Below the pieces are notes generated by a model that ran no database searches, was not told the origin of the DNA, and saw only the letters and a program-made list of their open reading frames with translations. Shown here piece by piece: positions 19,059-52,520 of a DNA stretch of 54,493 bases. The DNA is from a virus (Duplodnaviria > Caudoviricetes). The DNA lies in IMG/VR virus record IMGVR_UViG_3300048996_000054, positions 1-54,493 of that record. One strand, written 5' to 3'. A program made the position numbers and the translations under genes. Numbering within the stretch: the first letter of the stretch is position 1; each line of letters opens with the position of its first letter.

Positions 19059-19562
19059 ATGTTCGGCCGCTCCACCACCGACCACCGCGAGCGCCGGGAA
19101 GCCGAGCGCGCGCGCAACCTCGCCGTGCTGCTGGCCGGCGGGGCAGGCCTGCACCGTGGCACCTATGCCGGCGGCACTTCGGGTGAGGTGGTGGAGAAGA
19201 CAGAGGCCTACCGCGACCCGGTGCTGCTGGAGATGGCACGCGGCCGGCCCTGCTTGCTGCTGGTGCCGGCGGCCTGCAGCCAGCGGGTGGACACCGTGGT
19301 CGCTGCGCACTCCAACCTGCCGGAGCACGGCAAGGCCATGAGCCGCAAGGCCGACGATTGCTACAGCGCGTGGGGCTGCTTCGCCTGCCATACGTGGCTG
19401 GACCAGAGCAACGCCGCGGCGTCCCAGAAGCTGGGCGTCTTCATGGCCGCCCACGCCCGGCAGGTGCTGGCCTGGCGCCTGATTGAGATGGACCCGAACG
19501 AGCCCGAGCGCTTCCGCCGCGCCGCGGGCCGAGCCCTTGAACGCCTGAACGCCACGCTATGA
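19059..19562 (+). CDS. DUF1364 (YbcO-like) nuclease-domain protein
   Basis: ARGRPCLL.VP..C...TVVAAHSN...GK.M..KADD...AWGCFACH..LD. Confidence 0.85.
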   Translation: MFGRSTTDHRERREAERARNLAVLLAGGAGLHRGTYAGGTSGEVVEKTEAYRDPVLLEMARGRPCLLLVPAACSQRVDTVVAAHSNLPEHGKAMSRKADDCYSAWGCFACHTWLDQSNAAASQKLGVFMAAHARQVLAWRLIEMDPNEPERFRRAAGRALERLNATL

Positions 19563-20029
19563 CCCGCAAGTCCACCCGCCGCAAGTACCGGCCCGGCATG
19601 CACCCGCTGGACGCCATCACCGCCAGCCAGCCCTTCCCGGAGGCGGAGCTGACCCGCATCCTGATCAAGGTGCAGGACGCCTTCATGCAGCTGCGCAAGG
19701 GAAGCACTGATCCGGACATCTTCGACCGGCTGGCGGCCGTCCTGAACGTCGGTCTGGTCCGCGCCGAGAGCATTGGCCAGCCGGCAGTAGAGGTGTTTCA
19801 GGCCGGTCAGCGAGCCCTGATGGAGTGCGACGCCATCTTCGGCCGCCACCGCAAGTTCGGATTCACCGGGCCCGGCCTGCTAGCCATGCAGGAGGCCGTC
19901 GACCTCTACGAGCAGATCCTGCGCCTGTCGACCCCGCTGCAGATGGCCAAGGCGCAGGAGGAGTGCATGCGCCGGGTGATGGCGGGGCACTTCGAACAAG
20001 CGCCGGCAGCAACGGCCGCCGCGGCCTGA
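19559..20029 (+). CDS. hypothetical protein (paralog A)
   Basis: Shares VRAESIG.PAVEVF.AGQ.AL with the next gene. Confidence 0.7.
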   Translation: MTRKSTRRKYRPGMHPLDAITASQPFPEAELTRILIKVQDAFMQLRKGSTDPDIFDRLAAVLNVGLVRAESIGQPAVEVFQAGQRALMECDAIFGRHRKFGFTGPGLLAMQEAVDLYEQILRLSTPLQMAKAQEECMRRVMAGHFEQAPAATAAAA

Positions 20030-20045
20030 CAACAACAAGGAACCC

Positions 20046-20456
20046 ATGAACGCCGTCACCAACAGCTACAGCGCCGCCGAGCGCAATTCCATCATGACCG
20101 CGGTGGCGCAGTCCTTCATCGCCCTGCGCGACGGAAGCAACCGCATCGGGGACTTCAACACCTTGGCGGCGGCCTTCAACATCGCCATCGTCCGGGCCGA
20201 GTCGATCGGCGAGCCGGCGGTGGAAGTCTTCCGGGCCGGCCAGCAGGCGCTGCTGCGCGCCGACCAGACCTATGACGCCATGAAGGTGTACTGGTTCTCG
20301 CAGAGCGACATGGTGGACCTGGCCAAGGGCGTGCAGGGCTACTCGGAACTGCTGGCCATGAGCACGGAGCCGCAGATGAAGGCGGCCATCGCGGAAGCCG
20401 AGCGCCGGCTGCAGGAAGGCATCCACGCACGGCTGCCGGGGCAAGCCACGCACTGA
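20046..20456 (+). CDS. hypothetical protein (paralog B)
   Basis: Paralog of 19559-20029; AAGGA RBS. Confidence 0.7.
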   Translation: MNAVTNSYSAAERNSIMTAVAQSFIALRDGSNRIGDFNTLAAAFNIAIVRAESIGEPAVEVFRAGQQALLRADQTYDAMKVYWFSQSDMVDLAKGVQGYSELLAMSTEPQMKAAIAEAERRLQEGIHARLPGQATH

Positions 20457-20476
20457 ACACAACGAAGGAGTAGGGC

Positions 20477-20995
20477 ATGGACATGGCAGTAAGCGGCGGG
20501 GGCTACGTGGAGCGTTACGTCAGCGGCGCCAACTCCTCGGACCTTTCGGTGCGAAGCGAGGGCAGGGCGGACGACGTCGAGGCGATCGTGGCGGTGGCCT
20601 GGAACCGCAGCCGCATCGGGGCCGCTCTTCTGCGCCTGCATAGCGAGTGGGACGGCGCGGCTCGCCGCGGCATGAAGCTGGAGCAAGCCTTCCGGCAGCT
20701 CCGATCGCTGGCTGACGTCAAGACCGCGATGGTCACCTGGGCGCATCAGGATCGGCGGCCGGAGCCGGACGAACTGGTGGCCGCGGTGCTGGCCTGGTGG
20801 CTGGACAAGACCTGCAAGGTCTGCAACGGCACGCAGTGGGTGACCCGACCGAACCGGCCCAAGCAACCCTGCACTGGCTGCCATGGGACCGGAGAGGCAC
20901 GCATTCCCTACGGGGTGGACGGCCGGGCCCAGCTGGCTTACATGGAGTCCTGCCTGTACCGGGCCAGGGCGAGCATCAAGGCGCGCGCGCGATGA
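20477..20995 (+). CDS. Q-like late antiterminator / activator
   Basis: WWLDKTCKVCNGT...CTGCHGTG Zn finger; late nin-region position upstream of the late promoter. Confidence 0.7.
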   Translation: MDMAVSGGGYVERYVSGANSSDLSVRSEGRADDVEAIVAVAWNRSRIGAALLRLHSEWDGAARRGMKLEQAFRQLRSLADVKTAMVTWAHQDRRPEPDELVAAVLAWWLDKTCKVCNGTQWVTRPNRPKQPCTGCHGTGEARIPYGVDGRAQLAYMESCLYRARASIKARAR

Positions 20996-21417
20996 AGTGG
21001 CTCGATCGAAACATGGTGCATGGCCCGCACCTTTTCCTTGCCACCAGCGAGGCGTCGTTCAAGCGCGCCATGCGTGGCCTGGGGGTCGCGCGGGAGAAGT
21101 GGCCAACGTGGCAAGGAGACGACGCCATCGCCCGCGTGCATTCGTTCATGCACAAAAATGGCAGCTTGGCGTGCGTGGTGAGCTTCCGGCCGCCGCAAGT
21201 GTTCGATGGCATCGACGTTGCCTGCACCCTGGTCCATGAAGCGGTGCACGTGTTCCAGCAGTGGTGCGCTCATTACGAGGAGCGCGCGCCGTCGCGGGAG
21301 TTCGAGGCCTATTCGATCGACGGCATTGCGGAGCGGCTGATGCGCATCTGGGTGGAGGAGGAGAGGAAAGCCTACCGGGATCGCATGAAACGGGAACTTG
21401 CCAAGGCGGAAGGGTAG
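20992..21417 (+). CDS. HExxH metallopeptidase-like hypothetical protein
   Basis: LVHEAVHVFQ...SREFEAY. Confidence 0.65.
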   Translation: MKWLDRNMVHGPHLFLATSEASFKRAMRGLGVAREKWPTWQGDDAIARVHSFMHKNGSLACVVSFRPPQVFDGIDVACTLVHEAVHVFQQWCAHYEERAPSREFEAYSIDGIAERLMRIWVEEERKAYRDRMKRELAKAEG

Positions 21418-21426
21418 GATGGCACG

Positions 21427-21696
21427 ATGAACGAATCAGGCGTACGCCAACAACTCACCGAAGCCGAGCGGAAGGCCTTGGGCGGCCAGCTGCGGCCCGG
21501 GGACTTCGGAGTTCCGGAGCAGCACGCTCGGGCAGCTCAGGACTATGCCGCACGGCTGGTCGCGGAGGAGCGCGAGCGCTGCGCCAAGCTGTGCGACGAG
21601 GTCGTAACCGAAACCGTGGCGCGGCTCGGGTATGGCGACGAGTGCTCAGTCGTGGCAAGCAACTTGGCCGCTGCTATCCGCAAGGGTACGCCATGA
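21427..21696 (+). CDS. hypothetical phage protein
   Basis: EERERCAKLC...AAAIR motif. Confidence 0.65.
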   Translation: MNESGVRQQLTEAERKALGGQLRPGDFGVPEQHARAAQDYAARLVAEERERCAKLCDEVVTETVARLGYGDECSVVASNLAAAIRKGTP

Positions 21697-22097
21697 AGGT
21701 ATCAGACCTCACCGGCGCGCAGCTGGACTACTGGGTGGCGAAGGCGCAGGGATGGATCAAGACCCGCAGCCAGTACGACGACAAGCCCCTGCTCTGGGAC
21801 ACCGGCGGCGGGTTCTACCGGATAGAGGGAGTCGCCGGAGCGGAAGGCGACGAGCGCTGGCGACCGTCGACATGGTGGGGGCACGGCGGCCCGATCATCG
21901 AGCGGGAGCAGATCGCGATCTATCACGACTACGAGCATTGGCTGGCGGTGATGCCAGGGGCAATCAGCTACCCTGGTGACGTTGACCACGACGACGTGAC
22001 TGCGGTATTCGACGGGCATGGGGGCCCCACGCCCCTGATCGCTGCCATGCGTGCTTTCGTGGCTTCCAAGTTCGGGGAGGAGGTGCCAGATGTCTGA
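21693..22097 (+). CDS. ninX: NinX / DUF2591 family protein
   Basis: LTGAQLDYWVAKA...PST.W..GGPIIERE.I...GPTPLIAAMRAFVASK.G.EV. Confidence 0.88.
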   Translation: MKVSDLTGAQLDYWVAKAQGWIKTRSQYDDKPLLWDTGGGFYRIEGVAGAEGDERWRPSTWWGHGGPIIEREQIAIYHDYEHWLAVMPGAISYPGDVDHDDVTAVFDGHGGPTPLIAAMRAFVASKFGEEVPDV

Positions 22098-22419
22098 AAG
22101 ATTCCATCCCATCAACGACCTGCGGGAGCACGCGCCGCCCCAACGCGGGCCGGTAACGGAAGTGCGGCGCGGCAACATCGTGGTGGGTCACCTGAACTTC
22201 CTGGTGGACCCGGCCGCCCGCTACGTGCGGCTGCCGCTGATGACGCATAGCGACAGCGATCCGCTGAATGACGCGCCGCTCGCGTATGCCGACATGCTCC
22301 TGGACCTGCCGATGCGGTGGTGGCGCGACCTGGACACGAGGCGCGAGGAACGGTTCGCTGACGCCTCAGATGTGCCGGATGCGACATTGCGATTGGCCGC
22401 TGGATTCAAGCCAATATAA
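22090..22419 (+). CDS. hypothetical protein
   Basis: 109 aa from ATG 22090, GGAGG RBS. Confidence 0.55.
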   Translation: MSERFHPINDLREHAPPQRGPVTEVRRGNIVVGHLNFLVDPAARYVRLPLMTHSDSDPLNDAPLAYADMLLDLPMRWWRDLDTRREERFADASDVPDATLRLAAGFKPI

Positions 22420-22433
22420 GAAGCAAGTAATAC

Positions 22434-22462
22434 TTGCAACCTCATCCAGAAGGTAGGACAAT
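22434..22462 (+). promoter_or_regulatory. late promoter copy A (pR'-like)
   Basis: TTGCAA-17-GACAAT. Confidence 0.65.
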
Positions 22463-22486
22463 TCCCGCAGCCTGTACTGGGTGACC

Positions 22487-22565
22487 GCCTCAACGCGAGG
22501 CAGACAATCCGAACAGCGGCGCTTTCAACGCAGCGCCGAAGACCTGAAGGCAAAGCCGCCTTCGC
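22487..22565 (+). ncRNA. three-hairpin structured leader, copy A
   Basis: Stems GCCTC/GAGGC, CGGCGCT/AGCGCCG, GAAGGC/GCCTTC; same architecture as 48864-48946. Confidence 0.55.
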
Positions 22566-22573
22566 AAGATACC

Positions 22574-22602
22574 AAGCCCGCCACTGTGCGGGCTTTCGTT
22601 TG
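22574..22602 (+). terminator. intrinsic terminator (tR'-like)
   Basis: AAGCCCGC-cactgt-GCGGGCTT followed by TCGTTTG. Confidence 0.75.
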
Positions 22603-23015
22603 TCTCCTCGGGGAATCCATCCTCGATTGGCCGGCCCCGCGCCGGCCCTCTTTCTTCAGCGCAATCAGGATGCTCGCTGCGAGCAGCAGCGAATCCCGTG
22701 CGAAATCAAAGACTTAGGTGCTTAAGCGCTATTCGCGAACAGCACCTCCCCCGCTTGGGCGCCGCCCACTCCTGATGTCATAGGCCCCACCGCTCGAGCA
22801 GCACAGGGCGCCACCTAGACCCAGGGCGAGCGCCCAGCTTCTCCACGCGACGGCAGGCCCGCAAGCCTTGGCGGGAGGCAGGACCGGCTCCAACCCGGTG
22901 CCCGCCGCCTTTCAGCGCCGCCCGGCTCGGCGTCCCAAGCGCATAGACGGCCCAGCAGGCGCGCAGCCCGCAAGGGTCAGCCTGGAATGCGCGCCCCCTC
23001 CGGGGAAGGAACCCC

Positions 23016-23711
23016 ATGGCAACAACCCCCGACAAGAAGAAGCGCCCGGACTGGGCTGCCATCCAGCGCGACTACCGCACCGGCAAGTTCACCTTCCGGG
23101 AGCTGGAAGACAAGCATGGTGTCGGCTACGCCTCTATCAACCGCAAGGCCAAGGCCGAAGCCTGGCAAAAGGACCTGAGCCAAGTGGTGCGGGAAGCCAC
23201 CGAGGCTGCCGTCATCCGCGATGCCGTGCTGCAACAAGGCGCCGCAACAGGAACCGCAACAGCAACAGAACCGCAACAACAGAATGACCCCGACGTCGTG
23301 GCCGTGATGGCGGCGGTGGAACTGAATAAGGAAGTCCTGCTGCGACACCGCCGGGACATCCGGGATGCGCGGGACCTGACCATGACGATGCTCGGCGAGC
23401 TGAAGGTCGTGGGCGAAAACCCGGACTCGCTGGAGATCATGTTCGAACACATGACCTCGGAGATGAAGCCCGAGGAGCTGATGAATGCCACGCGCGCCTA
23501 CAACGCGCTGGTGAAGCTGCCTGGTCGCATCGGCTCGGTGCACAAGCTGGCCGACACCCTCGCCAAGCTCCAACCCCTGGAGCGCAAGGCCTTCGCCCTG
23601 GACAACGGGGCCGACGACACACCCCCACCCGAAGGCAGCCAGGCGGACAACGAGACCGCCCGCCGCATCGCTTTCATCCTCGAAAAGGGCCTGCGGGCTC
23701 AGAAGGGCTGA
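23016..23711 (+). CDS. terminase small subunit (putative)
   Basis: DWAAIQRDYRTG....REL...HGV....INRKAK.EAWQKD N-terminal HTH; ERKAFALD; first late gene. Confidence 0.7.
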   Translation: MATTPDKKKRPDWAAIQRDYRTGKFTFRELEDKHGVGYASINRKAKAEAWQKDLSQVVREATEAAVIRDAVLQQGAATGTATATEPQQQNDPDVVAVMAAVELNKEVLLRHRRDIRDARDLTMTMLGELKVVGENPDSLEIMFEHMTSEMKPEELMNATRAYNALVKLPGRIGSVHKLADTLAKLQPLERKAFALDNGADDTPPPEGSQADNETARRIAFILEKGLRAQKG

Positions 23712-23714
23712 CCC

Positions 23715-24062
23715 ATGGGAACTCTTTCCTCCATCAACCCCGGCCGCTTGAACAACGAGCAGCTGGTCGGCCAGGCTGATTTCATCGATGCCCGCGTGCT
23801 GGCGGCCAGCACTGCTGAAACCTTCCAGGCGCCGCCCAACGCCAAGTTCGTGCGCATCGCCGGTGATGGGGCGTTCTTCCTGAAGATCGCCACCTCTTCC
23901 ACTGCGGCGACTGTTCCTGCTGCCGATGTGACCGATGGCACGGCCTCCGAGTGCTGCCCCAACGGGGACGCTGTGTGGCGGATCTTGCCCGGCGACCAGC
24001 CCTATATCAGCGTGATCGCCACGGCAACTCGGATCGTGACGCTCTCGTACTACCGCAACTGA
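23715..24062 (+). CDS. hypothetical virion-type beta protein
   Basis: 115 aa, Ala/Thr-rich, strong codon bias. Confidence 0.65.
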   Translation: MGTLSSINPGRLNNEQLVGQADFIDARVLAASTAETFQAPPNAKFVRIAGDGAFFLKIATSSTAATVPAADVTDGTASECCPNGDAVWRILPGDQPYISVIATATRIVTLSYYRN

Positions 24063-24129
24063 ATCCCTCACCGCCCGGGCCAATGGGCGGGTCTCCACCA
24101 GCAACAGCAACAAGCAGGAGTAAAGCAGC

Positions 24130-24651
24130 ATGGACATTCGCAAATCCCTTCACGGCCGAGACCTGGGCATCGGCCCGACCGGCGAACTGGTCATCAACAA
24201 GGACACGGGCGAGCAGTCCGTCCTTGGCTTGTCGGCCAACAAGATCATCACCAGCGCGCAGGTGCTGGCGCTGTTCACCACGGCCATCGCGGTGATCCCG
24301 ACGCCCGGTGCTGGCCTCATCGCTGTGCCGCGGCTGGCGCAGGTCTACAAGCCCGCGGGCACCGCCTACGCCGTCGGTGCTGGCTCCGACCTGGTGCTGA
24401 AGTACACCAATGCGGCCGGCGCGCAGTGCTCCTCGGTCATCGAGACGGTGGGATTCCTGGACCAGGCCACTGCGCAGAACCGCTTTGTCGGCATGCCCGG
24501 TGCCACCGGCGCGACCGCGGCGGACGTGAACGGCGTGGCTGACGCTGCGGTGGTGTTGCACTGCCTGAGTGCCAACCCCACGACCGGTACCTCGCTGCTG
24601 TCCGTGCGGGTCTGGTACGACATCATCACCAGCACGCTGCCGATCGTCTGA
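24130..24651 (+). CDS. hypothetical virion-type protein (decoration-like)
   Basis: ITSAQVLAL.TT...IP.PGAG; AGGAG RBS. Confidence 0.65.
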   Translation: MDIRKSLHGRDLGIGPTGELVINKDTGEQSVLGLSANKIITSAQVLALFTTAIAVIPTPGAGLIAVPRLAQVYKPAGTAYAVGAGSDLVLKYTNAAGAQCSSVIETVGFLDQATAQNRFVGMPGATGATAADVNGVADAAVVLHCLSANPTTGTSLLSVRVWYDIITSTLPIV

Positions 24652-26207
24652 TGTCGCAGCTGGCCGAGATCCTTTCCGCGCTGTCCGCCCTCCCGGAGAA
24701 AGACCGGGAGGCGGTGGTGCGCGAAGCGATGGAGGCCACGAAGGACCTCAAGTGGGTGCCGAACCCCGGCCCGCAGACCGAGTGCTACTACTGCGAGGCC
24801 GAGGAAATCCTGTTCGGTGGCGAGCCGGGCGGCGGCAAGAGCCAGGTGGGCATCGGCCTGTCCCTGAACGAGCACGAGCGCTCGCTGCTGCTGCGCCGCA
24901 CGAACAAGGAAGCCGGCAAGTTCGTGGGAGAGGTCGAGCTGGTGCTCGGCACCCGCGACGGCTACAACGGCCAGAAGGACTGGTGGAAGCTGCCAGGCAA
25001 GCACCTGGACTTCGGCGGCGTGCAGCACGAGGACGACAAGCAGAAGTACAAGGGCGACCCGCACGACCTGATCTTCTTCGACGAGCTGACCGACTTCACC
25101 GAGTCGCAGTACATGTTTATCCGGCAGTGGAACCGCTCCACGACGCCGGGTCAGCGCTGCCGCACGGTGGGAAGCTCCAACGGTCCGACCAGCACCAATG
25201 GCCTGTGGGTGATCACCCGCTGGGCCGCCTGGCTGGACCCCAAGCACCCGAACCCGGCCAAGTCCGGCGAGATCCGCTGGTACCTGGTGGGCGACGACGG
25301 CAAGGAGATCGAGGTCGACGGGCCCGGCCCATACCCGGTACTGGGCCGGCAGGTGAAAGCGTCCTCGCGCACCTTCATCCGGTCCAAGCTGGAAGACAAC
25401 CCAGACCTGGCCGCCACCGACTACGGCTCGCGGCTGATGAACCAGTCGGAGAAGAACCGCAAGGCGTACGCGCTGGGCGACTTCGGCTCGATGCTGGAGG
25501 ACCACCCCTACCAAGCCATCCCGACCGAATGGGTGGTGCAGGCGCAGGAGCGCTGGACCAAGCTGCCGCCCTTCGGCGTGCCGATGTGCTCGCTGGGTGT
25601 CGACGTCGCGCAGGGCGGCAATGACGAGAGTGTGGTTGTCGAGCGCCACGATGCGTGGTTCTCCGAGCCCTTCAAGAAGCCCGGCAAGGAAACGCCCGAC
25701 GGCCCCTCCATCGCCGGCATGGTGACCTCGCGCCGCCGCGACGGTGCAAAACCCATCGTCGACGTCGGCGGCGGTTGGGGCGCGGAAGCCTACGGGCACC
25801 TGATCGGCAACGGCATCGAGGCCGAGGCGTACATGGGCATCAAGGCCACCCGCCTGCGCACCCTGGACAACTTGCACCCCTTCGTGAACGTGCGCAGCGC
25901 GGCCATCTGGAAGATGCGCGAGCTGCTCGACCCGAGCCAAGCCGGCGGCAGCCCTTGCGCCTTGCCTCCGAGCCGGATGCTGCTGGCGGACCTGACCGCT
26001 CCCATCTTCGAGATCACGCCCCGCGGCATTGCGGTGGAGTCCAAGGAAGACGTCTGCGCGCGGCTGGGCCGAAGCACCGACGAGGGCGACGCCACCGTGA
26101 TGGCGAACTGGGGTGGCGCGCGCATGGCCAGCCACTACCAGCAATGGAAAAAGCAAATGGCGCCCCCGCGCGTCGTCTTGAGCCGCCCGTCGGCACGGAG
26201 GAAGTAA
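24651..26207 (+). CDS. terL: terminase large subunit
   Basis: PNPGPQ, GGEPGGGKS Walker A, IFFDE Walker B, LGVDVAQGG.D nuclease motif, RS.DEGDA. Confidence 0.93.
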   Translation: MSQLAEILSALSALPEKDREAVVREAMEATKDLKWVPNPGPQTECYYCEAEEILFGGEPGGGKSQVGIGLSLNEHERSLLLRRTNKEAGKFVGEVELVLGTRDGYNGQKDWWKLPGKHLDFGGVQHEDDKQKYKGDPHDLIFFDELTDFTESQYMFIRQWNRSTTPGQRCRTVGSSNGPTSTNGLWVITRWAAWLDPKHPNPAKSGEIRWYLVGDDGKEIEVDGPGPYPVLGRQVKASSRTFIRSKLEDNPDLAATDYGSRLMNQSEKNRKAYALGDFGSMLEDHPYQAIPTEWVVQAQERWTKLPPFGVPMCSLGVDVAQGGNDESVVVERHDAWFSEPFKKPGKETPDGPSIAGMVTSRRRDGAKPIVDVGGGWGAEAYGHLIGNGIEAEAYMGIKATRLRTLDNLHPFVNVRSAAIWKMRELLDPSQAGGSPCALPPSRMLLADLTAPIFEITPRGIAVESKEDVCARLGRSTDEGDATVMANWGGARMASHYQQWKKQMAPPRVVLSRPSARRK

Positions 26208-28581: not shown

Positions 28582-29604
28582 ATGTTCAAGCGCAATCCAC
28601 TGCTGATGGTCGACGATCCTGGTGCTGCTGGTGGCGGTGCTGCTGCCGCCGCTGGAGGGGCTGGCGCTGGCGCCGGCGCTGGTGGTCAAACGGGTGCTTC
28701 CGCTGGTGCTGCGGACGCCGGGGCCAAGGCTGGCGCGGCTTCCGGCGCCGCCGATGCTGGTGGGCAAGGCGCTGCTGCCGCCGGCGCCGAGGGTGGTGCA
28801 GGTGCTGCCGCCAAGGAACCGCCGAAAGCCGACTGGGCCGAGGACTGGCGCACCAAGCTGGCCGGCGAGAAGCCCGACAAGCAGCTCGAGCGCATGGCCT
28901 CTCCCAAGGACGTCTACAACTCATGGAAGGCGCTGCAGTCCAAGCTGTCCAGCGGCGAACTCAAGTCGACCCTGCCCAAGGACGCCAAGCCAGAGGACGT
29001 GGCCAAGTGGCGCACCGAGAACGGCATCCCGGAGAAGCACACCGACTACAAGATGCCCGATGGCGTGGTGGTGGGGGACGCCGACAAGCCGCTGATCGAC
29101 CTGTTCCTGCAGGACATGCACGGCAAGAACGCCTCGCCGGAGATGGTGCAGACCGCGGTGGCCAGCTACTACAAGATCCAGGAGCAGCAGGCCGCCGCCA
29201 TCGCCGAGGCCGACGTCTCGCACAAAGACGAGATGGAGAACACGCTGCGCGCCGAGTGGGGCGCGGAGTACCGCGGCAACGTCAACGCCATCACCTCCAT
29301 GCTGTCGACGGCGCCAGGCGGCATCAAGGACAAGATCCTCAGCGCCCGCATGGCCGACGGCCGGGCGATCATGAACGACCCGGACGTCCTGCGCTGGTTC
29401 GCCACCACCTCGCGCGAGCTCAACCCGGTGGCGACCGTCGTCCCTTCCGGCGGCGACCAGATGGGCGCCATCACCGACGAACTTGCCGGCATCGAGAAGC
29501 TTATGGGCAACCGCTCCAGTGAGTACTGGAAGGGCCCGAAGGCCGACGCGATGCAGGCCCGATACCGCACCCTGGTCGCCGCGCGCGACCGGAAGACCAA
29601 ATGA
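28582..29604 (+). CDS. capsid scaffolding protein
   Basis: Gly/Ala-rich N-terminus, GIPEK..DY, LRAEWG..Y, YWKG; immediately upstream of the capsid gene. Confidence 0.8.
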   Translation: MFKRNPLLMVDDPGAAGGGAAAAAGGAGAGAGAGGQTGASAGAADAGAKAGAASGAADAGGQGAAAAGAEGGAGAAAKEPPKADWAEDWRTKLAGEKPDKQLERMASPKDVYNSWKALQSKLSSGELKSTLPKDAKPEDVAKWRTENGIPEKHTDYKMPDGVVVGDADKPLIDLFLQDMHGKNASPEMVQTAVASYYKIQEQQAAAIAEADVSHKDEMENTLRAEWGAEYRGNVNAITSMLSTAPGGIKDKILSARMADGRAIMNDPDVLRWFATTSRELNPVATVVPSGGDQMGAITDELAGIEKLMGNRSSEYWKGPKADAMQARYRTLVAARDRKTK

Positions 29605-44034: not shown

Positions 44035-44225
44035 TGGCATCGGCCTGGGGTCAGGCGTGGGGTGCGGCCTGGGGCTCCAGCTGGGGCTCCGTCGCCACAG
44101 AAGACTCCGACGACGACATTACGTGGAGCTGGGCGCGCAAGCGGCGCGAGCACGAAGAAGCCGACGAGGAACTGCTGACGCTGGCCGTGGGCCTGCTCAT
44201 ATCCGGGGAATTTGAATGTCACTGA
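44034..44225 (+). CDS. small Trp-Gly repeat protein
   Basis: MASAWGQAWGAAWGSSWG...EEADEELL; TGATG-coupled. Confidence 0.65.
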   Translation: MASAWGQAWGAAWGSSWGSVATEDSDDDITWSWARKRREHEEADEELLTLAVGLLISGEFECH

Positions 44226-47200
44226 TCAGCTGTCTGCGCAAAGCCAAGAGCGTCATCCACGCCGAGGACAAGGCGGCCATCCTTGCGCTGGCGACGGAGT
44301 TCCGTGGCAAAGGGGAGAACGCCAGCGGCGCCGCGCAAAAGGCCATCGAGCAGCACATGGCCGCGGTGCAGGCCCAGCTGGAGGACGCGGAATCCTCGCT
44401 CCTGCCGGGCCTGCAGAAGACCATCGCCGCGCAGGCTGTCGAAGCGCTCACCCGCGCCGGCCTGGGCAACCTGAAGCTGGTGGAATCGGTCGACCAGCTC
44501 CCGGAGTCCGCGCAGCGCAAGATCAAGTCCGAGGGCCAAGCCGGCACGCGCGGCATGTACGACCCGGAGACGGACACCACGTACCTGGTGCGGCAGAACA
44601 TCGCCAGCCTGGATGAAGCCTTCTGGGTGGGCCTGCATGAGGCCTTTCACCGAGGACTGCGCAAGACCGTAGGGGCGGAGGTGGAGCCGCTGCTGCAAGC
44701 CATCCACGACGGCAACCCGCGCGTGCAGGCGCTGGCGGCGCGGTACATGGAGCAGCAGAACATCCCGCTGGCCGAAGCCATCGAGGAAGTGCTGGCGGAC
44801 ATGGCGGGGCAGGGCGAGGTGGGGAACCTCAAGGGCTGGGACCAGCTGCTCGCCTTCCTGAAGGACGCAATCACCAAGCTCGCCGCCGCCGCTGGGGTGA
44901 AGCTGGAAGTCACCGACCAGATGGTGACGGACCTGGTGGCTGGAATGCGCCGGGCTGGAATGCAGGACCATTCCGGTGACGTCACCAACATGGTCAGCCA
45001 AGGTCCCAAGGGCACCCTCTCCTTCGGCAACGACATCACCGCCGTCCCTTCGATCATCGCCCTGATGGAAGGCGCCGACCTGTCGACCTTTTTGCACGAG
45101 GGCGGGCATTTCTTCCTCGAGGTGCAGGCCGACCTTGCCGCCCGAATCCAGCGCCGCACCTTCAACGAGCAGTACACCGGTGAGCCGGTCAGCGACTCCG
45201 AGCGCCAGATCGTCAAGGACATGGAGGCCATCCTCGGCTGGTTTGGCATCACCGGCACGCCGGAGCAATCGGCTCTGGACACCTGGGCCAGCATGACGCT
45301 GGAGGAAAAGCGCGAGCATCACGAGAAGTGGGCCCGGGGCTTCGAGCGCTACGCCATGGAAGGCAAGGCGCCGAGCCAGGACCTGCAGGGCCTGTTCTCC
45401 AAGTTCCGCGCGTGGCTGGTGTCGGTCTACAAGGCGCTGGCCGGGCTGAACGTCGAACTGACCCCGGAAGTGCGGCAGGTGATGGACCGCATGCTCGCCA
45501 GCGACGAAGCCATTGCCGAAGCGCAGATGGCCCGGAACATGGGCCCGCTGTTCGAGAGCCCGGAAGCGGCCGGCATGACGCCGGTGCAGTACCAGGAGTA
45601 CCAGGCGCTGGGCGAGCGGCAGACGGCCGAGGCCGCGGCGGAACTGGACGCCCGGCTGCTCAAGGACATGAAGTGGCTGTCCAAGGCGCGCGACAGGGCG
45701 ATGAAGGCCAAGCAGGAGGAGGCGGAGGATCTGCGCCGCGAGGTGCGGATGGAGGTCACCACCGATGTGATGGCGCGGCCGGTCTACCGAGCCTGGGCGT
45801 TTCTGACCAGCAAGGCCGAATACTTCGTCGAGCCTGGCCTTCAAATGGCCGAGACGGTCGACGCCACCCGGCAATCGGGCAAGCTGCGCACCAGCTACCT
45901 GAAGGAAAGCCACCCCGAGCAGTGGAAGACTCTGTCCGAGCGCCGCATGACCAGCGAGGAGCGGGGCCTGGACCCGGACTACGTGGCCGACGTGATCGGC
46001 TTCAGCTCCGGCGACGAGATGGTGCAGGCGCTGGCTTCCGCGCCAGCGCCGAAGCAGCTCATCGAGGAGATGGTCGATCAGCAGATGCTGGAGCGCTACG
46101 GCGACATCACCAGCGACGAGGCCCTGCAGCGCGCGGCCGACGAGGCGGTGCACAACGAGGTCCGCGCCCGGGTGGTTGCCACGGAACTGAAGGCGCTGGA
46201 GAAGGCGGGCAAGGTGCGGACGGGCCCGCGCAGCACGGTCGACGCCATGGCACGGGCGGCCAAGGAATACGCCTACCAGGTGATCGCCGGCCAGCGCGTG
46301 CGCGATCTTCGCCCGAGCCAGTATTCGGCGGCGCAGGCGCGCTCGGCCCGGCTCGCGCAGCAGGCACTGGGCAAGAGCACCGAAGAAGCGGCGATGCACA
46401 AGCGCAACGAGCTGATCAACGGCTACGCGGCCAAGGCTGCCTACGACGCGCAGGAAGAGGTCCGGTCGCTGCAGAAGTACATGCGCAAGTTCGACAAGCG
46501 CATAGACGGCATCGACCCCGGGTACCAGGACCAGATCGAGCAGCTGCTGGAGGGTTACGACTTCAAGCCAGCCAGCCTGAAGGCGATCGACAAGCGCAAG
46601 GCGTTTGCCGAGTGGTACGCCGAGCACAAGAACGACGACAACCCGCCGGTGGTGCCGCAGGAACTGATCGACGGCATGGGCCGCAAGTCGTTCAAGAACA
46701 TGACGGTGGAGGAATTGCGGGGCCTGCGCGACACCGTCAAGCAGATCGAGCACCAGGGCCGGCTGAAGAAGAAGCTGCTGCTTGCGCGCGATGCCAGGGA
46801 CTTCGAAGCCATCGCCAAGGAGATCGCCGCCTCCATCGTGGAGCACGGAGGCGAAGCGCGCGAGGTGAAGCTGGAGGGCGAGAACGCGGTGGTGGACTGG
46901 TTCGCCGGGGTTGCAGCCTCGCATCGCAAGCTGGCCAGCCTGTTCCGCCAGATGGACGGCAACAAGGACGCCGGGCCTCTATGGGAGCACATCGGCCGGG
47001 CCATGAACGAGCGCGGCACCATGGAAGACGTGATGGTGGAGCGCGCCACCATGCAGCTGCGCGAGCTCTACGCACCTCTGCTGAAGATGCGCGGCGGCAT
47101 CTCCGGGTTCCGCTCCAAGGTCTTTATCCCCGAGATCAACGCCAGCCTCACGCGCGGCGGCCGACTGGCGGTGGCGCTGAACTGGGGCAATGAGGCGAAC

Positions 47201-48820
47201 CGCCAGCGCGTGATGGACGGCGACAAATGGTCCGTCGGCCAGGTGCAGGCGATCCTGAAGACGCTCTCGCGCCAGGAGCTCGACTTCGTCAACAAGGTGT
47301 GGGAGTTCCTCGACTCCTACTGGCCGGAGGTGGCCGCCAAGGAAAAGCGCCTGACCGGCGTGGAGCCTGAGAAGGTCGAAGCGGTCCCGTTCAATCTCTC
47401 CCTGCCCGACGGCACCGAGGTGGCGATGCGCGGCGGCTACTACCCGCTGAAGTACGACACCGACCGCAGCGACCGGGCCGAGCAGCAGGAAGCCGCGCAG
47501 GCAGCCAAGGAGATGATGCAGGGCGTCTTCACCAAGGCCACCACCCGCCGCGGCCATACCAAGGAACGGCTGGAGGATGTCAAGCGCGCGGTGCGCAAAG
47601 ACCTGAACGTGATAACCCAACACGTGACGCAGGTGGTGCACGACCTGACCTGGCACGAGTGGCTGATCGACACCAACAAGCTGCTGGACGACGACGGCAT
47701 CAAGGAGGCCATCCGCGCGCACTACGGCCCCAAGGTCCTGAAGACCATCCGCGACGACGTCCTGGGCATCGCCACGGCCGACGTCGTGCCGCAGACGGAC
47801 ATCGACAAGGCGCTGCTGATGCTGCGATCCAACGTGAGCCGCGCGACCATGGGCGCGTCCCTGACGACCGCCTTCCTGCAGCCGTTCGGCCTCACGCAAT
47901 CCATCGTTCGCATCGGCGGCCGGCACGTGCTGCGCGGTATGGCGCGGTGGGGAGGCGACGCGGCCAGGATGGAAAGCACCCTGTCCTGGATTCACGAACG
48001 CTCGGACTTCATGCGCCTTCGGGCCAAGACCTTCAATCGGGAACTGCGGGAGATCCAAGGCTCCGTGGCCGGCAAGTCAGCCACCATGCGGGTGGTCGAC
48101 GCAGGCCTCTTCGTGATGATGCAGAAGATGCAGATGGTGGCGGACGTGCCGACCTGGCTGGGCCAGTACGAGAAGTCGCAGGCGGAAGGGCTGGACGAGG
48201 CCGCCTCCGTCGCCATGGCCGACCGGGCGGTGCTCGAGGCCCAGGGCGGCGGCCAGACCAAGGACCTGGCAGAAGTGCAGCGCAAGCACCCCATGCTGAC
48301 CCAGTTCTATTCGTACTTCAGCACTACCCTGAACCTCGCCGCGGAAAGCACGGCGGCCACCAACTTCAAGCAGCCGGCCGCGGTGGCCGGCTGGCTGGGC
48401 GACATGGCGCTGCTGATGGTGGTGCCGGCCATCCTGCCGTCCCTCATCCTGTTTTCGTTGCGGGGCGGGGACGGCGATGACGACAAAGGCCTGTTGCGCC
48501 GGATGCTGGAGTGGCAGGTGAGCTACCTCCTGGGCACCGTGGTCTTGGCGCGCGAACTGTCCGGCGCGGTCTCCGGCTTCGACTATGCCGGCCCGCCGGT
48601 GGGCCGCCTGGCGACCGACATCACGAAGGCTGGCAAGCAGACCGCGCAGGGCGAAGTCGACGAGCCGCTGGTGCTGGCGTACATCAACCTGTTGGGGTCA
48701 GGCCTCGGCATCCCCACGGTACAGGCCCTGCGCTCCTACAAGGGCTGGAAGGCCTGGAGCGAGGGCAAGGAAGGGGCTGGGCCGCAATCCGTCTTGTTCG
48801 GGCCGCCCCCCAAGGATTAA
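44216..48820 (+). CDS. large polyvalent ejection protein, C-terminal part, with two zincin-like metallopeptidase motifs
   Basis: 1534 aa; RGMYDP...LHEAFH...EEVLA and ADLSTFLHEGGH...HEKWARGFERY; GGYYPLKYD; hydrophobic C-terminal region. Confidence 0.8.
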   Translation: MSLISCLRKAKSVIHAEDKAAILALATEFRGKGENASGAAQKAIEQHMAAVQAQLEDAESSLLPGLQKTIAAQAVEALTRAGLGNLKLVESVDQLPESAQRKIKSEGQAGTRGMYDPETDTTYLVRQNIASLDEAFWVGLHEAFHRGLRKTVGAEVEPLLQAIHDGNPRVQALAARYMEQQNIPLAEAIEEVLADMAGQGEVGNLKGWDQLLAFLKDAITKLAAAAGVKLEVTDQMVTDLVAGMRRAGMQDHSGDVTNMVSQGPKGTLSFGNDITAVPSIIALMEGADLSTFLHEGGHFFLEVQADLAARIQRRTFNEQYTGEPVSDSERQIVKDMEAILGWFGITGTPEQSALDTWASMTLEEKREHHEKWARGFERYAMEGKAPSQDLQGLFSKFRAWLVSVYKALAGLNVELTPEVRQVMDRMLASDEAIAEAQMARNMGPLFESPEAAGMTPVQYQEYQALGERQTAEAAAELDARLLKDMKWLSKARDRAMKAKQEEAEDLRREVRMEVTTDVMARPVYRAWAFLTSKAEYFVEPGLQMAETVDATRQSGKLRTSYLKESHPEQWKTLSERRMTSEERGLDPDYVADVIGFSSGDEMVQALASAPAPKQLIEEMVDQQMLERYGDITSDEALQRAADEAVHNEVRARVVATELKALEKAGKVRTGPRSTVDAMARAAKEYAYQVIAGQRVRDLRPSQYSAAQARSARLAQQALGKSTEEAAMHKRNELINGYAAKAAYDAQEEVRSLQKYMRKFDKRIDGIDPGYQDQIEQLLEGYDFKPASLKAIDKRKAFAEWYAEHKNDDNPPVVPQELIDGMGRKSFKNMTVEELRGLRDTVKQIEHQGRLKKKLLLARDARDFEAIAKEIAASIVEHGGEAREVKLEGENAVVDWFAGVAASHRKLASLFRQMDGNKDAGPLWEHIGRAMNERGTMEDVMVERATMQLRELYAPLLKMRGGISGFRSKVFIPEINASLTRGGRLAVALNWGNEANRQRVMDGDKWSVGQVQAILKTLSRQELDFVNKVWEFLDSYWPEVAAKEKRLTGVEPEKVEAVPFNLSLPDGTEVAMRGGYYPLKYDTDRSDRAEQQEAAQAAKEMMQGVFTKATTRRGHTKERLEDVKRAVRKDLNVITQHVTQVVHDLTWHEWLIDTNKLLDDDGIKEAIRAHYGPKVLKTIRDDVLGIATADVVPQTDIDKALLMLRSNVSRATMGASLTTAFLQPFGLTQSIVRIGGRHVLRGMARWGGDAARMESTLSWIHERSDFMRLRAKTFNRELREIQGSVAGKSATMRVVDAGLFVMMQKMQMVADVPTWLGQYEKSQAEGLDEAASVAMADRAVLEAQGGGQTKDLAEVQRKHPMLTQFYSYFSTTLNLAAESTAATNFKQPAAVAGWLGDMALLMVVPAILPSLILFSLRGGDGDDDKGLLRRMLEWQVSYLLGTVVLARELSGAVSGFDYAGPPVGRLATDITKAGKQTAQGEVDEPLVLAYINLLGSGLGIPTVQALRSYKGWKAWSEGKEGAGPQSVLFGPPPKD

Positions 48821-48828: not shown

Positions 48829-48857
48829 TTGCACACCTGAGCCATAACCCGGAAAAT
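48829..48857 (+). promoter_or_regulatory. late promoter copy B
   Basis: TTGCAC-17-GAAAAT; spacer resembles that of copy A. Confidence 0.6.
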
Positions 48858-48863
48858 GACACC

Positions 48864-48946
48864 TGCCCGCGCAAGGGCACATGAACAACTCGGAACGCGC
48901 CGCTTGAAACACAGCGGCGAAGAACTTAGGGGATAGCCGTCCCCGC
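48864..48946 (+). ncRNA. three-hairpin structured leader, copy B
   Basis: Stems TGCCC/GGGCA, CGCCGCT/AGCGGCG, GGGGAT/GTCCCC. Confidence 0.55.
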
Positions 48947-48949
48947 TCG

Positions 48950-48980
48950 AAACCCGCCTAGTGCGGGTTTTGTCGTTTCT
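48950..48980 (+). terminator. intrinsic terminator
   Basis: AAACCCGC-ctagt-GCGGGTTT-TGTCGTTTCT. Confidence 0.8.
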
Positions 48981-49082
48981 GGCTTGGGATAGGCTGGCCG
49001 GCCGACAAGGGGTGAACGCACCGCCCTTTCCCAGAGTCTTCGTGCGGCCTTGCGCCACTCGGCGCGTGTAAAGGCAAACCCC

Positions 49083-49517
49083 ATGTTGGAAATTCTTCTG
49101 GACCCAGAGGACGCGCACCTGTGGCCGCTTCCTTGGTACATCAACGGCGGCTACATCCGGCGCACCTACTACGACCAAGACGGTAGTCACCGCCACGAGT
49201 TTTTGCATCGCGCGGTTCTTTCCGTGCCGGTAGGCCACGTTATCGACCACATCAACGGCAACACGTTGGACAACAGGCGCTGCAACTTGCGCGTGTGCAC
49301 TCCGGGCGAAAACGCAAAGAACCGCGGTCCGTACAAGAACAACACAACCCGGTTCAAAGGCGTTTGTTACGTGGCGAGGCTGGGAAAGTTCCGGGCTTCT
49401 ATTGGATGCGACGGCATCAAGCATCGCCTTGGGTGGTTCGACACCGCGGAAGCAGCTGCTGCTGCCTACAACAAAGCTGCGCTCGACCTTCACGGCGAGT
49501 TTGCGCGCTTGAACTGA
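49083..49517 (+). CDS. HNH-AP2 homing endonuclease
   Basis: LHR.V....IDHINGNTLDNRRCNLR.CT..EN..N; FKGV...F.ASI...LG.FDTAE.AA.AYN.AA..LHGEFA. Confidence 0.92.
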   Translation: MLEILLDPEDAHLWPLPWYINGGYIRRTYYDQDGSHRHEFLHRAVLSVPVGHVIDHINGNTLDNRRCNLRVCTPGENAKNRGPYKNNTTRFKGVCYVARLGKFRASIGCDGIKHRLGWFDTAEAAAAAYNKAALDLHGEFARLN

Positions 49518-49555
49518 ATTTTTAGTTTCTGCGCCTTGCGCGCCAGGAGCAGCCT

Positions 49556-51694
49556 ATGCCTGCAACCGCTACTGACCGGCTCTACGGGTTAACCACTAGT
49601 ACAGCAATAAAACCCCCATGCTTGGTCGCCACCACCGCCAACATCGCTTTGACCGGTCTCCAGACCATCGACGGCGTGGTGCTGGCGGCCAACGACCGGG
49701 TGCTGGTGAAGAACCAGACCAACACCACAACGAACGGCATCTACGAGGCCAACACCTCCGGGTGGAGCCGCGCGCCTGACTTCGATGGGGTGCGCGACGC
49801 GGTGAGCGGCACGCTGGTGATCGTGCGTAACGGCACTGACAACGGTAACACCGTCTGGGAACTGACCACGGCCAACCCGGTGGCGATCGGCACGGACGCG
49901 CTCACCTTCACCAAGGCGCTGCTGGACGACACGGCCACTGCTGTCTTCATCCAAAACGGGACCGGCGCAGTCGAACAAACCGCTCAGGACAAGCTGCGCG
50001 ACTGGGGCACGGCGGAGGGGTACGGCGCACTGGGCGACGGCGCGACCGACGACACTGCCGCCATCATCAAGTGCCTTAACGCCAAGGGCGCCTGCTACCT
50101 GATCCCCGGCAAGACCTACGTTTGCGACAACGTAATCCTTCCCGCCGGGGCCTGCATCTTCAGCGTGGGACGAGCCGCCACCCTCAAGCAGAAGTTCGCG
50201 GTCGCCAGCACTGGCATGCTGTACGCAAACAGCGGCTCGGCCAGCGCCACGCTCGACAACATCAGCATCTTCGGCGTCACGCTGGAGGGTCAGGTTGCGA
50301 CTCAGGGATTCGCCGAGTTCGTGCACCTGATTTCGGTCAACGGCGTGCGCAACTTCAGGCTCGATGACTGCCTGCTCAAGGGGTTCCGTGGCGACGCGCT
50401 CTACCTGGGCTCTGGCATCGTCGCGGGAGATGAGCGGCACAACTACAACGTGCGCGTCACGCGCACCGACTTCGATGGCGTGAACAACGACAACCGCAAC
50501 GCGGTTAGCGTGATTGACGTTGACGGTCTGACCATCAAAGGCTGTGGTTTCAAGAACTGCACGCGCCCGAACATGCCGGGCCCCATTGACCTGGAACCGG
50601 ACGCCCTGCCGTTCCATGTGATCCGAAACGTCCGCATCGCCAACAACACAGGTGACAACATCGGCGGCAACGTGGGATTCGTTTCAGTGCTGGTGCCGGC
50701 GGCAGTCACTGCCGCTCCAAGGAACATCCGTGTTCTCAACAACACGCTCACCAATTACGTCGGCACCGGCGCATTCTTCACCTTCACCGCGAACCGCGCC
50801 CCCACGGCAACCAGCGAAAACAACGATGTTCAGGTGATCGGAAACCACGGCAAGACGGGCGGCCTGCCTCTGCAGATCTTTGACGGCAAGGGCATCGTCA
50901 CCCGAGACAACACATGGGAAGATTTCACCGCTTCGACCTTGATCGGCTACACGGGAGCGGCGCAGAAGGTCCTCGACCTGGAGGTGGACGACACCTACAT
51001 TCGCTGCGGCTCCAATAGTGGCAGCGGAGTGGTGGTGTATCAACTGGATCACGCCAAGATCAAAGGCAAGTTGGTCGATTGCGGAAAAGGAGTGGCAGGC
51101 AGCGCCAATGGCATCGACTTCAACACCGGAACCTCGTCGTACATCGACATTGAGGAGTTGGAGATTTCCTCGCCGACTGGCAAGACGCTGGTGGGCATCC
51201 AGAAAGAGGCCGGGCACACGTTCGCAGCTTCCACCAACAGGTATGTAAACAACAACCTGAATGGTCTCAGCAACGCTTTCCAGGCCGACTACTCCGACGA
51301 GCTGGAAACTGCGTGGCTACCTATCGTCACGGGGTCATCTTCGGCCGGCGCAGGTGTCTACACCGCCGGCCAGTACGGCCGGCTTCGGCGCATGGGCAAG
51401 AAAGCGAGCATTCGGGGCAAGGTGCAGGTGAGTGCCGGCCATACCGGCACCGGCATGATCCAAATTCCGCTCCCAATTGCCGCCAAGGCAGCCAGCAACA
51501 ACGAGGAGACGCCTGTTTCCCTGCTGGTCACTGGAGTGGCGACGACCGGCGGCCATGTAGGTCTCATCAACCCTGCGGTCGGGTCGACAGGGGCAATCCG
51601 CTGCTACTACACAGGCACTGGGACCATGGGGCAGACAGCGATCCCTGCCGGCGCGTTCACCGTCTACTTCAGTGCCGAGTACGAGACCGCCTAA
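49556..51694 (+). CDS. tailspike / polysaccharide depolymerase (beta-helix)
   Basis: ATTANIALTGLQTIDGV...DRVLVKNQT...NGIY...WSRAPD N-terminal domain; YGALGDGATDDTAAI pectate-lyase-like start; IDLEPD. Confidence 0.85.
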   Translation: MPATATDRLYGLTTSTAIKPPCLVATTANIALTGLQTIDGVVLAANDRVLVKNQTNTTTNGIYEANTSGWSRAPDFDGVRDAVSGTLVIVRNGTDNGNTVWELTTANPVAIGTDALTFTKALLDDTATAVFIQNGTGAVEQTAQDKLRDWGTAEGYGALGDGATDDTAAIIKCLNAKGACYLIPGKTYVCDNVILPAGACIFSVGRAATLKQKFAVASTGMLYANSGSASATLDNISIFGVTLEGQVATQGFAEFVHLISVNGVRNFRLDDCLLKGFRGDALYLGSGIVAGDERHNYNVRVTRTDFDGVNNDNRNAVSVIDVDGLTIKGCGFKNCTRPNMPGPIDLEPDALPFHVIRNVRIANNTGDNIGGNVGFVSVLVPAAVTAAPRNIRVLNNTLTNYVGTGAFFTFTANRAPTATSENNDVQVIGNHGKTGGLPLQIFDGKGIVTRDNTWEDFTASTLIGYTGAAQKVLDLEVDDTYIRCGSNSGSGVVVYQLDHAKIKGKLVDCGKGVAGSANGIDFNTGTSSYIDIEELEISSPTGKTLVGIQKEAGHTFAASTNRYVNNNLNGLSNAFQADYSDELETAWLPIVTGSSSAGAGVYTAGQYGRLRRMGKKASIRGKVQVSAGHTGTGMIQIPLPIAAKAASNNEETPVSLLVTGVATTGGHVGLINPAVGSTGAIRCYYTGTGTMGQTAIPAGAFTVYFSAEYETA

Positions 51695-52519: not shown

Positions 52520-52520
52520 C

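Follow-up and report, generated by a model that had tools for sequence, protein, structure and literature searches.

Duplicated promoter-hairpin-terminator modules and a linked zinc-ribbon protein in a soil phage: candidate late antitermination cassettes

The complete IMG/VR virus record IMGVR_UViG_3300048996_000054 (54,493 bp; hereafter the window, meaning the whole stretch that was analyzed) represents a soil phage in which one arrangement of promoter, hairpins, and terminator occurs twice, as module A and module B, and the question raised by this locus is what such a duplicated element does. A first-pass annotation made from the letters alone had proposed a late-control element combining a Q-type DNA site with a structured RNA, or else a constitutive small RNA made in lysogens. 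We favor, with moderate confidence, the explanation that the modules work as late antitermination cassettes after the pattern of lambda pR'-tR', which would be served by the 172-amino-acid (aa) zinc-ribbon protein encoded at 20477-20995, and whose terminated leaders would be released as small RNAs. This reading follows from the gene order, the promoter-leader-terminator layout, the late genes lying behind, and the linked small zinc-ribbon protein, which together match the logic of lambda Q/pR'/tR'. The anatomy of the modules, their conservation and covariation, their gene context, and the linkage between protein and leader were established as described below.

Anatomy, gene context, and relatives of the modules

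Both modules (22434-22605 and 48829-48979), as read from the sequence and summarized in Table 1, begin with a weak sigma-70-type promoter, after which come a 5' hairpin, hairpin 1 (a 7-bp stem whose 8-nt loop reads T..AAC.C), a further hairpin (hairpin 2), and an intrinsic terminator. Every element listed for this duplicated architecture in the first-pass annotation was recovered, and the same two modules were found at the same places in another phage record, G001. The core of modules A and B exhibited 81% mean column identity over 101 aligned columns. Module A was predicted to fold with -52.7 kcal/mol (z -2.58; 5 of 200 shuffles equally stable) and module B with -51.3 kcal/mol (z -3.53; none of 200 shuffles equally stable), and a consensus scan flagged the terminators of both modules plus an additional terminator at 22629-22647. 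The 5' hairpins of the two modules are not homologous to each other, that of module A being without counterpart in the other modules. The stems of hairpin 2 are 2 nt out of register in the alignment, and hence the exchange of stems between the copies, which had been read as compensatory, is a register shift and not a clean compensatory case.

Module A is situated between nin-type genes (YbcO- and NinX-type) and the terminase genes TerS/TerL, and module B begins 9 nt past the stop codon of a 1534-aa tail protein (44216-48820), between this large protein and HNH, tail-fiber, and lysis genes. From these gene positions, each module thus heads a late-gene block, in good agreement with the placement proposed at the outset, since both stand where late-gene control elements stand.

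Among the 42 loci of TerL relatives, the module was present only in L006 (record G001), whose TerL is approximately 60% identical to that of the window and which carries the two modules mentioned above. The G001 promoters read TTGCGC-17-CACAAT and TTGCAC-17-GACAAT, both of its modules possess the hairpin GCCC-GCGCAA-GGGC as in window module B, and hairpin 1 reads AGGACGCT-TTCAACGC-AGCGTCCT in one module and AGGGCGCT-TTTAACGC-AGCGCCCT in the other. Pattern scanning and protein-guided searches further identified two IMG/VR lineages with hairpin 1, namely L166/L167 (CGCGCT-TTGAACGC-AGCGTG) and L248 (CCGCGCT-TTGAACGC-ATCGCGG, with one mismatch), and a 6929-bp contig from another soil metagenome was revealed to contain the protein gene together with a module A that differs at 7 of 119 nt. 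A complete pattern scan of IMG/VR returned 45 stretches, of which the true members were only G001 (two copies) and L054/L060 (the records of L167/L166), the remaining stretches being chance matches or an unrelated TACGCTTTAAACGCAGCGTGA element; a further pattern scan of viral contigs returned at least 115 stretches, and one match of an earlier viral-contig scan fell inside a gene and was rejected as chance. A DNA search of GenBank phages with 20400-24700 gave no match, and one with the 116-nt core gave only terminator-like pieces with 22-35% coverage. No relatives of TerS were found in viral contigs, and the contigs of X3 and X4 gave only short pieces of low likeness. When the close protein subfamily was used, the metagenome scan returned only the metagenome copy of the G001 contig, and the genome scan found nothing.

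Module A of G001 (L006:2556-2888) has a reading frame inside its leader, past hairpin 2 but ahead of the terminator; it encodes a lipoprotein-type signal (MKTVIAATMLAAAALTGC...) and looks like a moron under a late promoter. A near-identical 21-nt hairpin, TACGCT-TTAAACGC-AGCGTG(A), which matches hairpin 1 in its core and in the type of its loop, was observed in intergenic regions of unrelated large phage contigs (L052, L104, L109, L136, L148, L160, and L228, with two copies each in L052, L104, and L136); in L148, L160, and L228, it lies a short distance upstream of strong TTGAC.-type promoters. Relatives of the zinc-ribbon protein were absent from the three records with the TACGCTTTAAACGCAGCGTGA hairpin that were searched (0/3).

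Leader structure and the linked zinc-ribbon protein

Selection on RNA structure had been claimed from the two copies in the window, which alone are insufficient to show covariation; the claim is borne out by sets of 6 and 34 sequences. For hairpin 1, 95.2% of the cells in six distinct sequences were paired, and among its seven pairs, three were changed on both sides, three were invariant, and one departed only via a single unpaired cell. The inner CGCT/AGCG pairs and the T..AAC.C loop are conserved while the outer pairs covary, and the loop is kept across phages whose proteins are 37-55% identical. The covariation score was reached by none of 500 shuffles and amounted to 0.457 for the real structure vs. 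at most 0.143 for slid-partner controls. RNAalifold applied to five longer sequences predicted hairpins 1 and 2 unaided. The sample of six sequences is small, and related sequences can exceed shuffles without any structure; given the slid-partner controls and the fixed loop, a real hairpin is nevertheless the best reading. Within each genome, both copies agree in the outer stem of hairpin 1 and in the bases 3' of it (AAGA in the window, TCGAC in G001), which would fit either a phage-specific reader or gene conversion. The hairpin-1 loop may also bear some likeness to boxA (GCUCUUUAAC), provided that a 1-nt gap is allowed.

The partner protein suggested in the first-pass annotation proved to be conserved together with the module. 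A tblastx comparison of the window with G001 singled out the zinc-ribbon gene as the conserved neighbor on the upstream side of module A (55.6% identity over 133 aa), the distance from gene to promoter being approximately 340 nt in G001, and the window having 1.4 kb of NinX-type genes inserted. The four cysteines are invariant (CxxC-x15-CxxC in P0001). Beyond generic zinc-ribbon motifs, Pfam, PHROGs, and NCBIfam contain no family for this protein, Pfam giving only a weak DnaJ_CXXCXGXG match to P0001, and every source that names the protein labels it hypothetical. A profile search of 1.84 billion representatives retrieved 1433 relatives at E<=0.001 and 244 at E<=1e-30, these being cluster representatives at 50% identity, and the family is thus large and unnamed. 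Named hosts of the genome loci were Variovorax, Acidovorax, a Gallionellaceae metagenome-assembled genome (MAG), and a Betaproteobacteria MAG; the protein occurred in 3 of 401 sampled genomes of that host order. Directly upstream of the zinc-ribbon gene, the window carries two adjacent paralogous genes (19559-20029 and 20046-20456), both phrog_20828 of unknown function, of which G001 has a single copy at the corresponding place.

At the loci of the protein relatives, a TTGC..-17-.A.AAT promoter was found at or just past the stop codon, before every related leader. Most of the comparison concerned a large leader type of 140-170 nt, behind which stands an intrinsic terminator built like those of the window, AAGCCCGCC...GCGGGCTTT.TCGTTTCTG. 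A covariance model (R1) built from 13 large-type leaders matched in 35 of 40 viral loci, just downstream of the protein gene, with 54-125 bits (E 2.3e-12 or better), in all of 14 further loci at E<=0.01 (12 of them at >=29 bits), and in 8 of 10 distinct places in bacterial genomes. A second R1 match in G007 was merely a terminator after a gene and was discarded. Across 34 distinct large-type sequences, 93.3% of the cells were paired and 15 of 26 pairs were changed on both sides, in an alignment that was fitted to the model and thereby favors the structure; in the first helix, which bears a conserved GCUG loop, this applied to 9 of 13 pairs. None of 500 shuffles reached the covariation score, which was 0.505 vs. 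at most 0.12 for slid-partner controls. To judge from these comparisons, the RNA structure of the leaders is clearly under selection. Downstream of the large-type terminator, HNH, small terminase, and large terminase genes follow in both of the two loci checked.

Rfam 15 at the gathering threshold gave no match in the window and only tRNAs in 14 related loci; a match to a described Rfam family, named in the first-pass annotation as removing novelty, was thus not obtained. The best sub-threshold match for both leader types was isrK (RF01394), whose gathering score of 50 lies far above the 22.2 bits obtained with module B and the 15.1 bits obtained with L171.

The relation of the window modules to the large type is partial. 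R1 scored 19 bits on module B (48868-48978) and 11.7 bits on module A, in the terminator part only, with which the terminator of module A aligns; the 5' half of the window modules was not recognized by R1, and no full-length match including the GCUG-loop helix and the long-range helix was obtained. By eye, GGGGAUAGCCGUCCCCGCUCGAA plus terminator in the window corresponds to CGAUAGCCGAACUCGCCCUGAA plus terminator in the other types, the position of hairpin 1 after GAACG equals that of a variable hairpin in the other leader types, and L166 and L248 combine hairpin 1 with large-type features. We thus treat the window type as a putative diverged variant of one leader superfamily, on the basis of position and partial alignment, without a significant model score. 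A third leader variant, starting TGCC(A/C)..CCGATGGCA.TGGCA, was observed behind short (~166-aa) forms of the protein at L214:960-1200 and in L233, L236, L237, L240, L241, and L246, and it scored 29-46 bits with R1 in six IMG/VR loci and 16.9 bits in the L214 form; these forms bridge the leader types into a continuum. Other observations concern what lies behind the leaders. In several related phages, tRNA genes stand directly after the leader (L166:4343-4493, L181:3847-3920, and L182:3787-3860). HNH genes follow large-type leaders (L189:3976-4323 and L172:3806-4156), and in the window, HNH follows module B and not module A, which hints that module B and its HNH gene may be a displaced copy of an ancestral leader-HNH block.

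Table 1. Features of the modules and their neighborhood in the window
Feature	Position	Strand	Sequence or remark	Basis
YbcO/HNH-type gene	19059-19562		Upstream of module A	
Zinc-ribbon protein gene	20477-20995	+	172 aa, CxxC-x15-CxxC; candidate antiterminator, conserved partner of the leader cassette	
NinX-type gene	21261-22097		Between zinc-ribbon gene and module A	
Module A, putative promoter	22434-22462	+	TTGCAA (22434-22439), 17-nt spacer containing CCTCATCCAGAA, GACAAT (22457-22462)	
Module A, 5' hairpin	22487-22501	+	GCCTC-AACGC-GAGGC, 5 bp	Reading, folding
Module A, linker	22504-22514	+	ACAATCCGAAC	
Module A, hairpin 1	22517-22538	+	CGGCGCT-TTCAACGC-AGCGCCG, 7-bp stem, then AAGA	Reading, folding, covariation
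Module A, hairpin 2	22546-22563	+	GAAGGC-AAAGCC-GCCTTC	Reading, folding; RNAalifold on 5 sequences
Module A, predicted intrinsic terminator	22574-22605	+	AAGCCCGC-CACTGT-GCGGGCTT + TCGTTTGTCT; hairpin 22574-22595, T-tract	Consensus scan
Second hairpin-plus-terminator unit after module A	22601-22655	+	Begins UGUCUCCUC	Terminator 22629-22647 flagged by consensus scan
Genes under module A	23016-26207	+	Small terminase 23016-23711, large terminase 24651-26207	PHROG phrog_1206, E 1.3e-37; TerL relatives
Module B, putative promoter	48829-48857	+	TTGCAC (48829-48834), 17-nt spacer containing CCTGAGCCATAA, GAAAAT (48852-48857)	
Module B, 5' hairpin	48864-48879	+	TGCCC-GCGCAA-GGGCA	Reading, folding
Module B, hairpin 1	48898-48919	+	CGCCGCT-TGAAACAC-AGCGGCG, 7-bp stem, then AAGA	Reading, folding, covariation
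Module B, hairpin 2	48929-48944	+	GGGGAT-AGCC-GTCCCC	Reading, folding, RNAalifold
Module B, predicted intrinsic terminator	48948-48979	+	Hairpin 48948-48972, TCGTTTC tail	Consensus scan
Genes under module B	49050-52961	+	HNH endonuclease 49050-49517, tail fiber or spike 49556-51694, endolysin 52521-52961	PHROG matches

The second unit that follows module A matched Rfam RF02278, a Betaproteobacteria toxic small RNA, with 25.7 bits, and the same unit after G001 module A (L006:3000-3060) did so with 29.4 bits, both below the gathering score of 50. In both phages, this unit begins with UGUCUCCUC and shows a further CCUC-bearing stretch (AUCCUC in the window, CAUCCCUC in G001) and a GC-rich terminator hairpin; its role may be that of a tandem terminator or of a further small RNA made on read-through. 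Elsewhere in the window, ARAGORN called a 94-nt 'tRNA-???' with a two-base anticodon at 28724-28817, inside a long plus-strand reading frame (28582-29604), which is probably a false call.

The cis signal and the competing explanations

For known Q proteins, two requirements are described, namely a binding element located between -35 and -10, as for lambda and phage 21 (PMC6606751), and a -10-like pause element in the transcribed region (PMC6606751; PMC9388147). A Q-type DNA site in the promoter spacer, as proposed in the first-pass annotation, is suggested by motifs in the window phage and in G001: within the 40 kb of G001 examined, CTGTAACAG has just two occurrences, both in promoter spacers, and CCT(C/G)A(T/G)CCA(G/T)AA matches exactly only in the spacers of the two window promoters, a circular test, because the pattern was derived from those promoters. 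The proposal thus remains suggestive for these two phages and does not extend to the large type, in which the spacer does not follow the protein. A third near-match in the window, CCTCATCCAAAA (53634-53656, one mismatch), is located 4 nt behind TTGCGT, with no -10-like hexamer, inside a minus-strand frame, and is probably due to chance. Large-type loci whose proteins are only 42-53% identical still show 89-96% identity over their first 45 transcribed bases. The conserved signal of the family is thus the start of the transcribed region, which could be read equally as DNA or as RNA.

As for the protein, hhalign aligned the zinc ribbon with lambda Q residues 116-169 (E 7.4e-4, probability 25.7%), and a PDB profile search returned the Q-lambda structures 7ubm, 7ubj, and 4mo1 at E 0.01-0.02. 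Its ESM Atlas neighbors are unnamed; in a few neighbor clusters, roughly one member in ten carries PF03589, and the best row with such a cluster gave TM 0.29/0.44. From these comparisons, the zinc ribbon is the sole link of the protein to a known regulator.

Several observations weigh against the antitermination cassettes that we favor. With 8 of 12 consensus positions each, promoters A and B are weak, and they were not flagged by the promoter scan because its threshold is 9. The G001 spacer motif is offset by 6 bp between its two promoters relative to the hexamers. In the large type, identities of protein and spacer are uncorrelated (rho 0.02; 325 pairs, 26 loci), and L197 has a different promoter, yet its protein is 95-96% and its leader 91-97% identical; these two results together fit poorly with a site in the -35/-10 spacer such as lambda and phage 21 possess. 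A TAnnnT pause element was not evident when the initial ~30 transcribed bases of each of the four modules were inspected by eye. In the PDB profile search, the UvrA zinc finger outscored lambda Q, and the resemblance to lambda Q may thus be that of a generic zinc ribbon. PF03589 matched only 1 of 36 relatives (E 0.1), and none of 61 members matched any of the Q families PF03589, PF06530, and PF06323 at E 0.01; apart from the zinc ribbon that resembles the one of lambda Q, the protein thus shows no match to the three Q families.

In the favored mechanism, the weak sigma-70-type promoter would fire and the polymerase would make a folded leader of ~110-135 nt. Without a phage factor, transcription would stop at the intrinsic terminator, which in module A would be backed by the additional one downstream. 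Encoded where the nin-type early-right genes end, the zinc-ribbon protein of 172 aa would render the polymerase starting from these promoters termination-resistant, and read-through would then reach the terminase, head, and tail genes from module A, and the HNH, tail-fiber, and lysis genes from module B. The terminated leaders would accumulate as small RNAs, and the conserved hairpins, most notably hairpin 1, whose loop is fixed, may be part of the loading site or may serve a function of the short RNA itself. In this scheme, promoter activity, termination, the antiterminator activity of the protein, and its binding target are what we infer. A more far-reaching form of it, which we regard as rather unlikely, would make the unnamed zinc-ribbon family a fourth class of Q-like late antiterminator, loaded via the structured initial transcribed region or leader RNA and not via spacer DNA, as a hybrid of Q with N/nut or put, the window phage and G001 using two loading sites for two late units.

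A protein that reads RNA in the manner of N at boxB is a related but improbable explanation, by which the zinc-ribbon protein would recognize the nascent leader (hairpin 1 here, the GCUG-loop hairpin in the large type) and ride the polymerase through terminators, the modules being the counterparts of nutL/nutR for late genes. The fixed loop and inner stem of hairpin 1 with a covarying outer stem are the pattern of a hairpin read as RNA, and the constancy of the first 45 bases of the large type with diverged proteins and a free spacer, the switched promoter but retained leader of L197, and the outer stem and 3' flank shared by both copies within each genome point in the same direction. However, gene conversion can yield such within-genome likeness, the conserved bases are equally readable as DNA, and since the leader is far more conserved than the protein, its target is better sought in the host than in a phage protein that evolves fast. 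A conserved host target would in turn agree with a leader that binds RNA polymerase by itself and suppresses termination without any phage protein, as in put, the zinc-ribbon protein doing something else. The near-invariant first 45 nt across diverged phages and the two copies of a two-hairpin RNA between promoters and terminators, which is the layout of HK022 putL/putR, are in line with it. We nonetheless consider it very doubtful, since a terminator right behind a constitutive antiterminator RNA would give no control and the tight linkage with the protein gene would be left unexplained.

The modules might instead chiefly encode small RNAs that, in the manner of StxS or IsrK, are produced in lysogens and act in trans, with control of read-through secondary or absent. 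In each module, the promoter and terminator bound a stable folded RNA with a 5' hairpin, selection on structure would be expected of such an RNA, isrK was the best sub-threshold Rfam match for both leader types, and StxS and IsrK show that regulation by such RNAs is possible (PMC7547250; PMC4825925). Against this, the isrK scores lie far under the gathering score and reflect mainly a hairpin plus terminator, no target or seed region was found, and a trans-acting RNA would have no need to be tied so strictly to the zinc-ribbon gene and to the starts of late operons. As the main function, small RNAs thus seem to us about as improbable as an N/boxB-like reader; their release is compatible with the favored cassettes, and Q-type control and a constitutive short RNA, the two roles envisaged at the outset, are both still leading readings. 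Least probable of all, in our judgment, is plain punctuation, by which recombination at a mosaic joint would have duplicated an ordinary promoter with its terminator, and the hairpins would be without function. Phage genomes are mosaic, the HNH gene after module B as after large-type leaders is consistent with a copied block, and the excess over shuffles could arise by relatedness as noted above, but the compensatory changes far exceed the slid-partner controls in both hairpin 1 and the large type, the loop is kept across phages with strongly diverged proteins, and G001 retained the two-copy layout at a TerL identity of ~60%.

Comparison with known systems and implications

Late antitermination by Q is a textbook system, with three protein families in enterobacterial phages. 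To our knowledge, the cis signal in all three families is DNA, and the leader RNA is a by-product. The window phage resembles the lambdoid Q/pR'/tR' systems (Q-lambda, Q21, and Q82) in that the regulator gene ends the nin-type early-right genes and is followed by a promoter, a 100-200 nt leader, an intrinsic terminator, and the late operon, with the NinX-type genes lying between gene and promoter in the window. The CxxCxGxG...CxxCxGxG zinc ribbon is like the arm of Q-lambda, and the window phage and G001 each have a genome-specific motif in the -35/-10 spacer. In contrast to the lambdoid systems, the zinc-ribbon protein has no sequence membership in the three Q families, a -10-like pause element was not seen in the four modules, the leader is a conserved and covarying structured RNA, the spacer of the large type is independent of the protein, and a single genome holds two cassettes instead of one.

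Stx phages are described as producing the short RNA StxS from pR'-tR' just downstream of the Q gene, with the same promoter giving a long read-through transcript (PMC7547250); likewise, IsrK of Gifsy-1 is described as a short RNA just downstream of antQ, from a promoter that also gives a long read-through transcript (PMC4825925). A short terminated RNA with its promoter just downstream of a Q-type gene would be the likeness to the present modules; the differences are that the leaders scored outside the Rfam isrK family and that the modules are found in a different host class, Betaproteobacteria, and in two copies. The same gene order is seen in this host group in a Variovorax phage, where another Q-like gene precedes an HNH gene (PMC9658991). 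AlpA of Pseudomonas aeruginosa loads at a promoter element and enables the polymerase to bypass a downstream intrinsic terminator (PMC9371919); as a small phage-type regulator with promoter loading and terminator bypass, it is similar to the mechanism proposed here, whereas a structured leader is unmentioned there for AlpA, the comparison being by description. HK022 put and lambda N/nut (boxA-boxB) likewise have two dispersed hairpin RNA copies between promoter and terminators, with conserved loops and varying stems; unlike those elements, the present ones precede late and not early genes, have a terminator immediately after them, and are linked to a zinc-ribbon protein instead of to the arginine-rich N or to no protein.

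A short RNA made from a promoter and terminator downstream of a Q gene has already been described for lambda pR'-tR', StxS, and IsrK, and the novelty first attributed to this concept does not hold. What is new here is the unnamed protein family, which lies outside the three Q families as judged by sequence, the structured leader RNA under selection, which is absent from Rfam, and the presence of the cassette twice in this phage lineage, heading two late-gene blocks. Full-text searches, none of which was worded for this family or its motifs and which did not extend to subscription journals, showed no description of it, which is weak evidence of absence.

The biological significance of these findings lies in the coupling of a large unnamed protein family (1433 representatives, with members in prophages of Variovorax, Acidovorax, and Gallionellaceae) to a structured leader absent from Rfam. 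If the protein is an antiterminator, it would represent a new family and would allow a direct test of whether an RNA element can replace the Q-binding DNA site, and if the leaders act as small RNAs, they would constitute a new class of prophage small RNAs in Betaproteobacteria. The two-copy layout offers a natural experiment in which one such system would serve two separate late operons.

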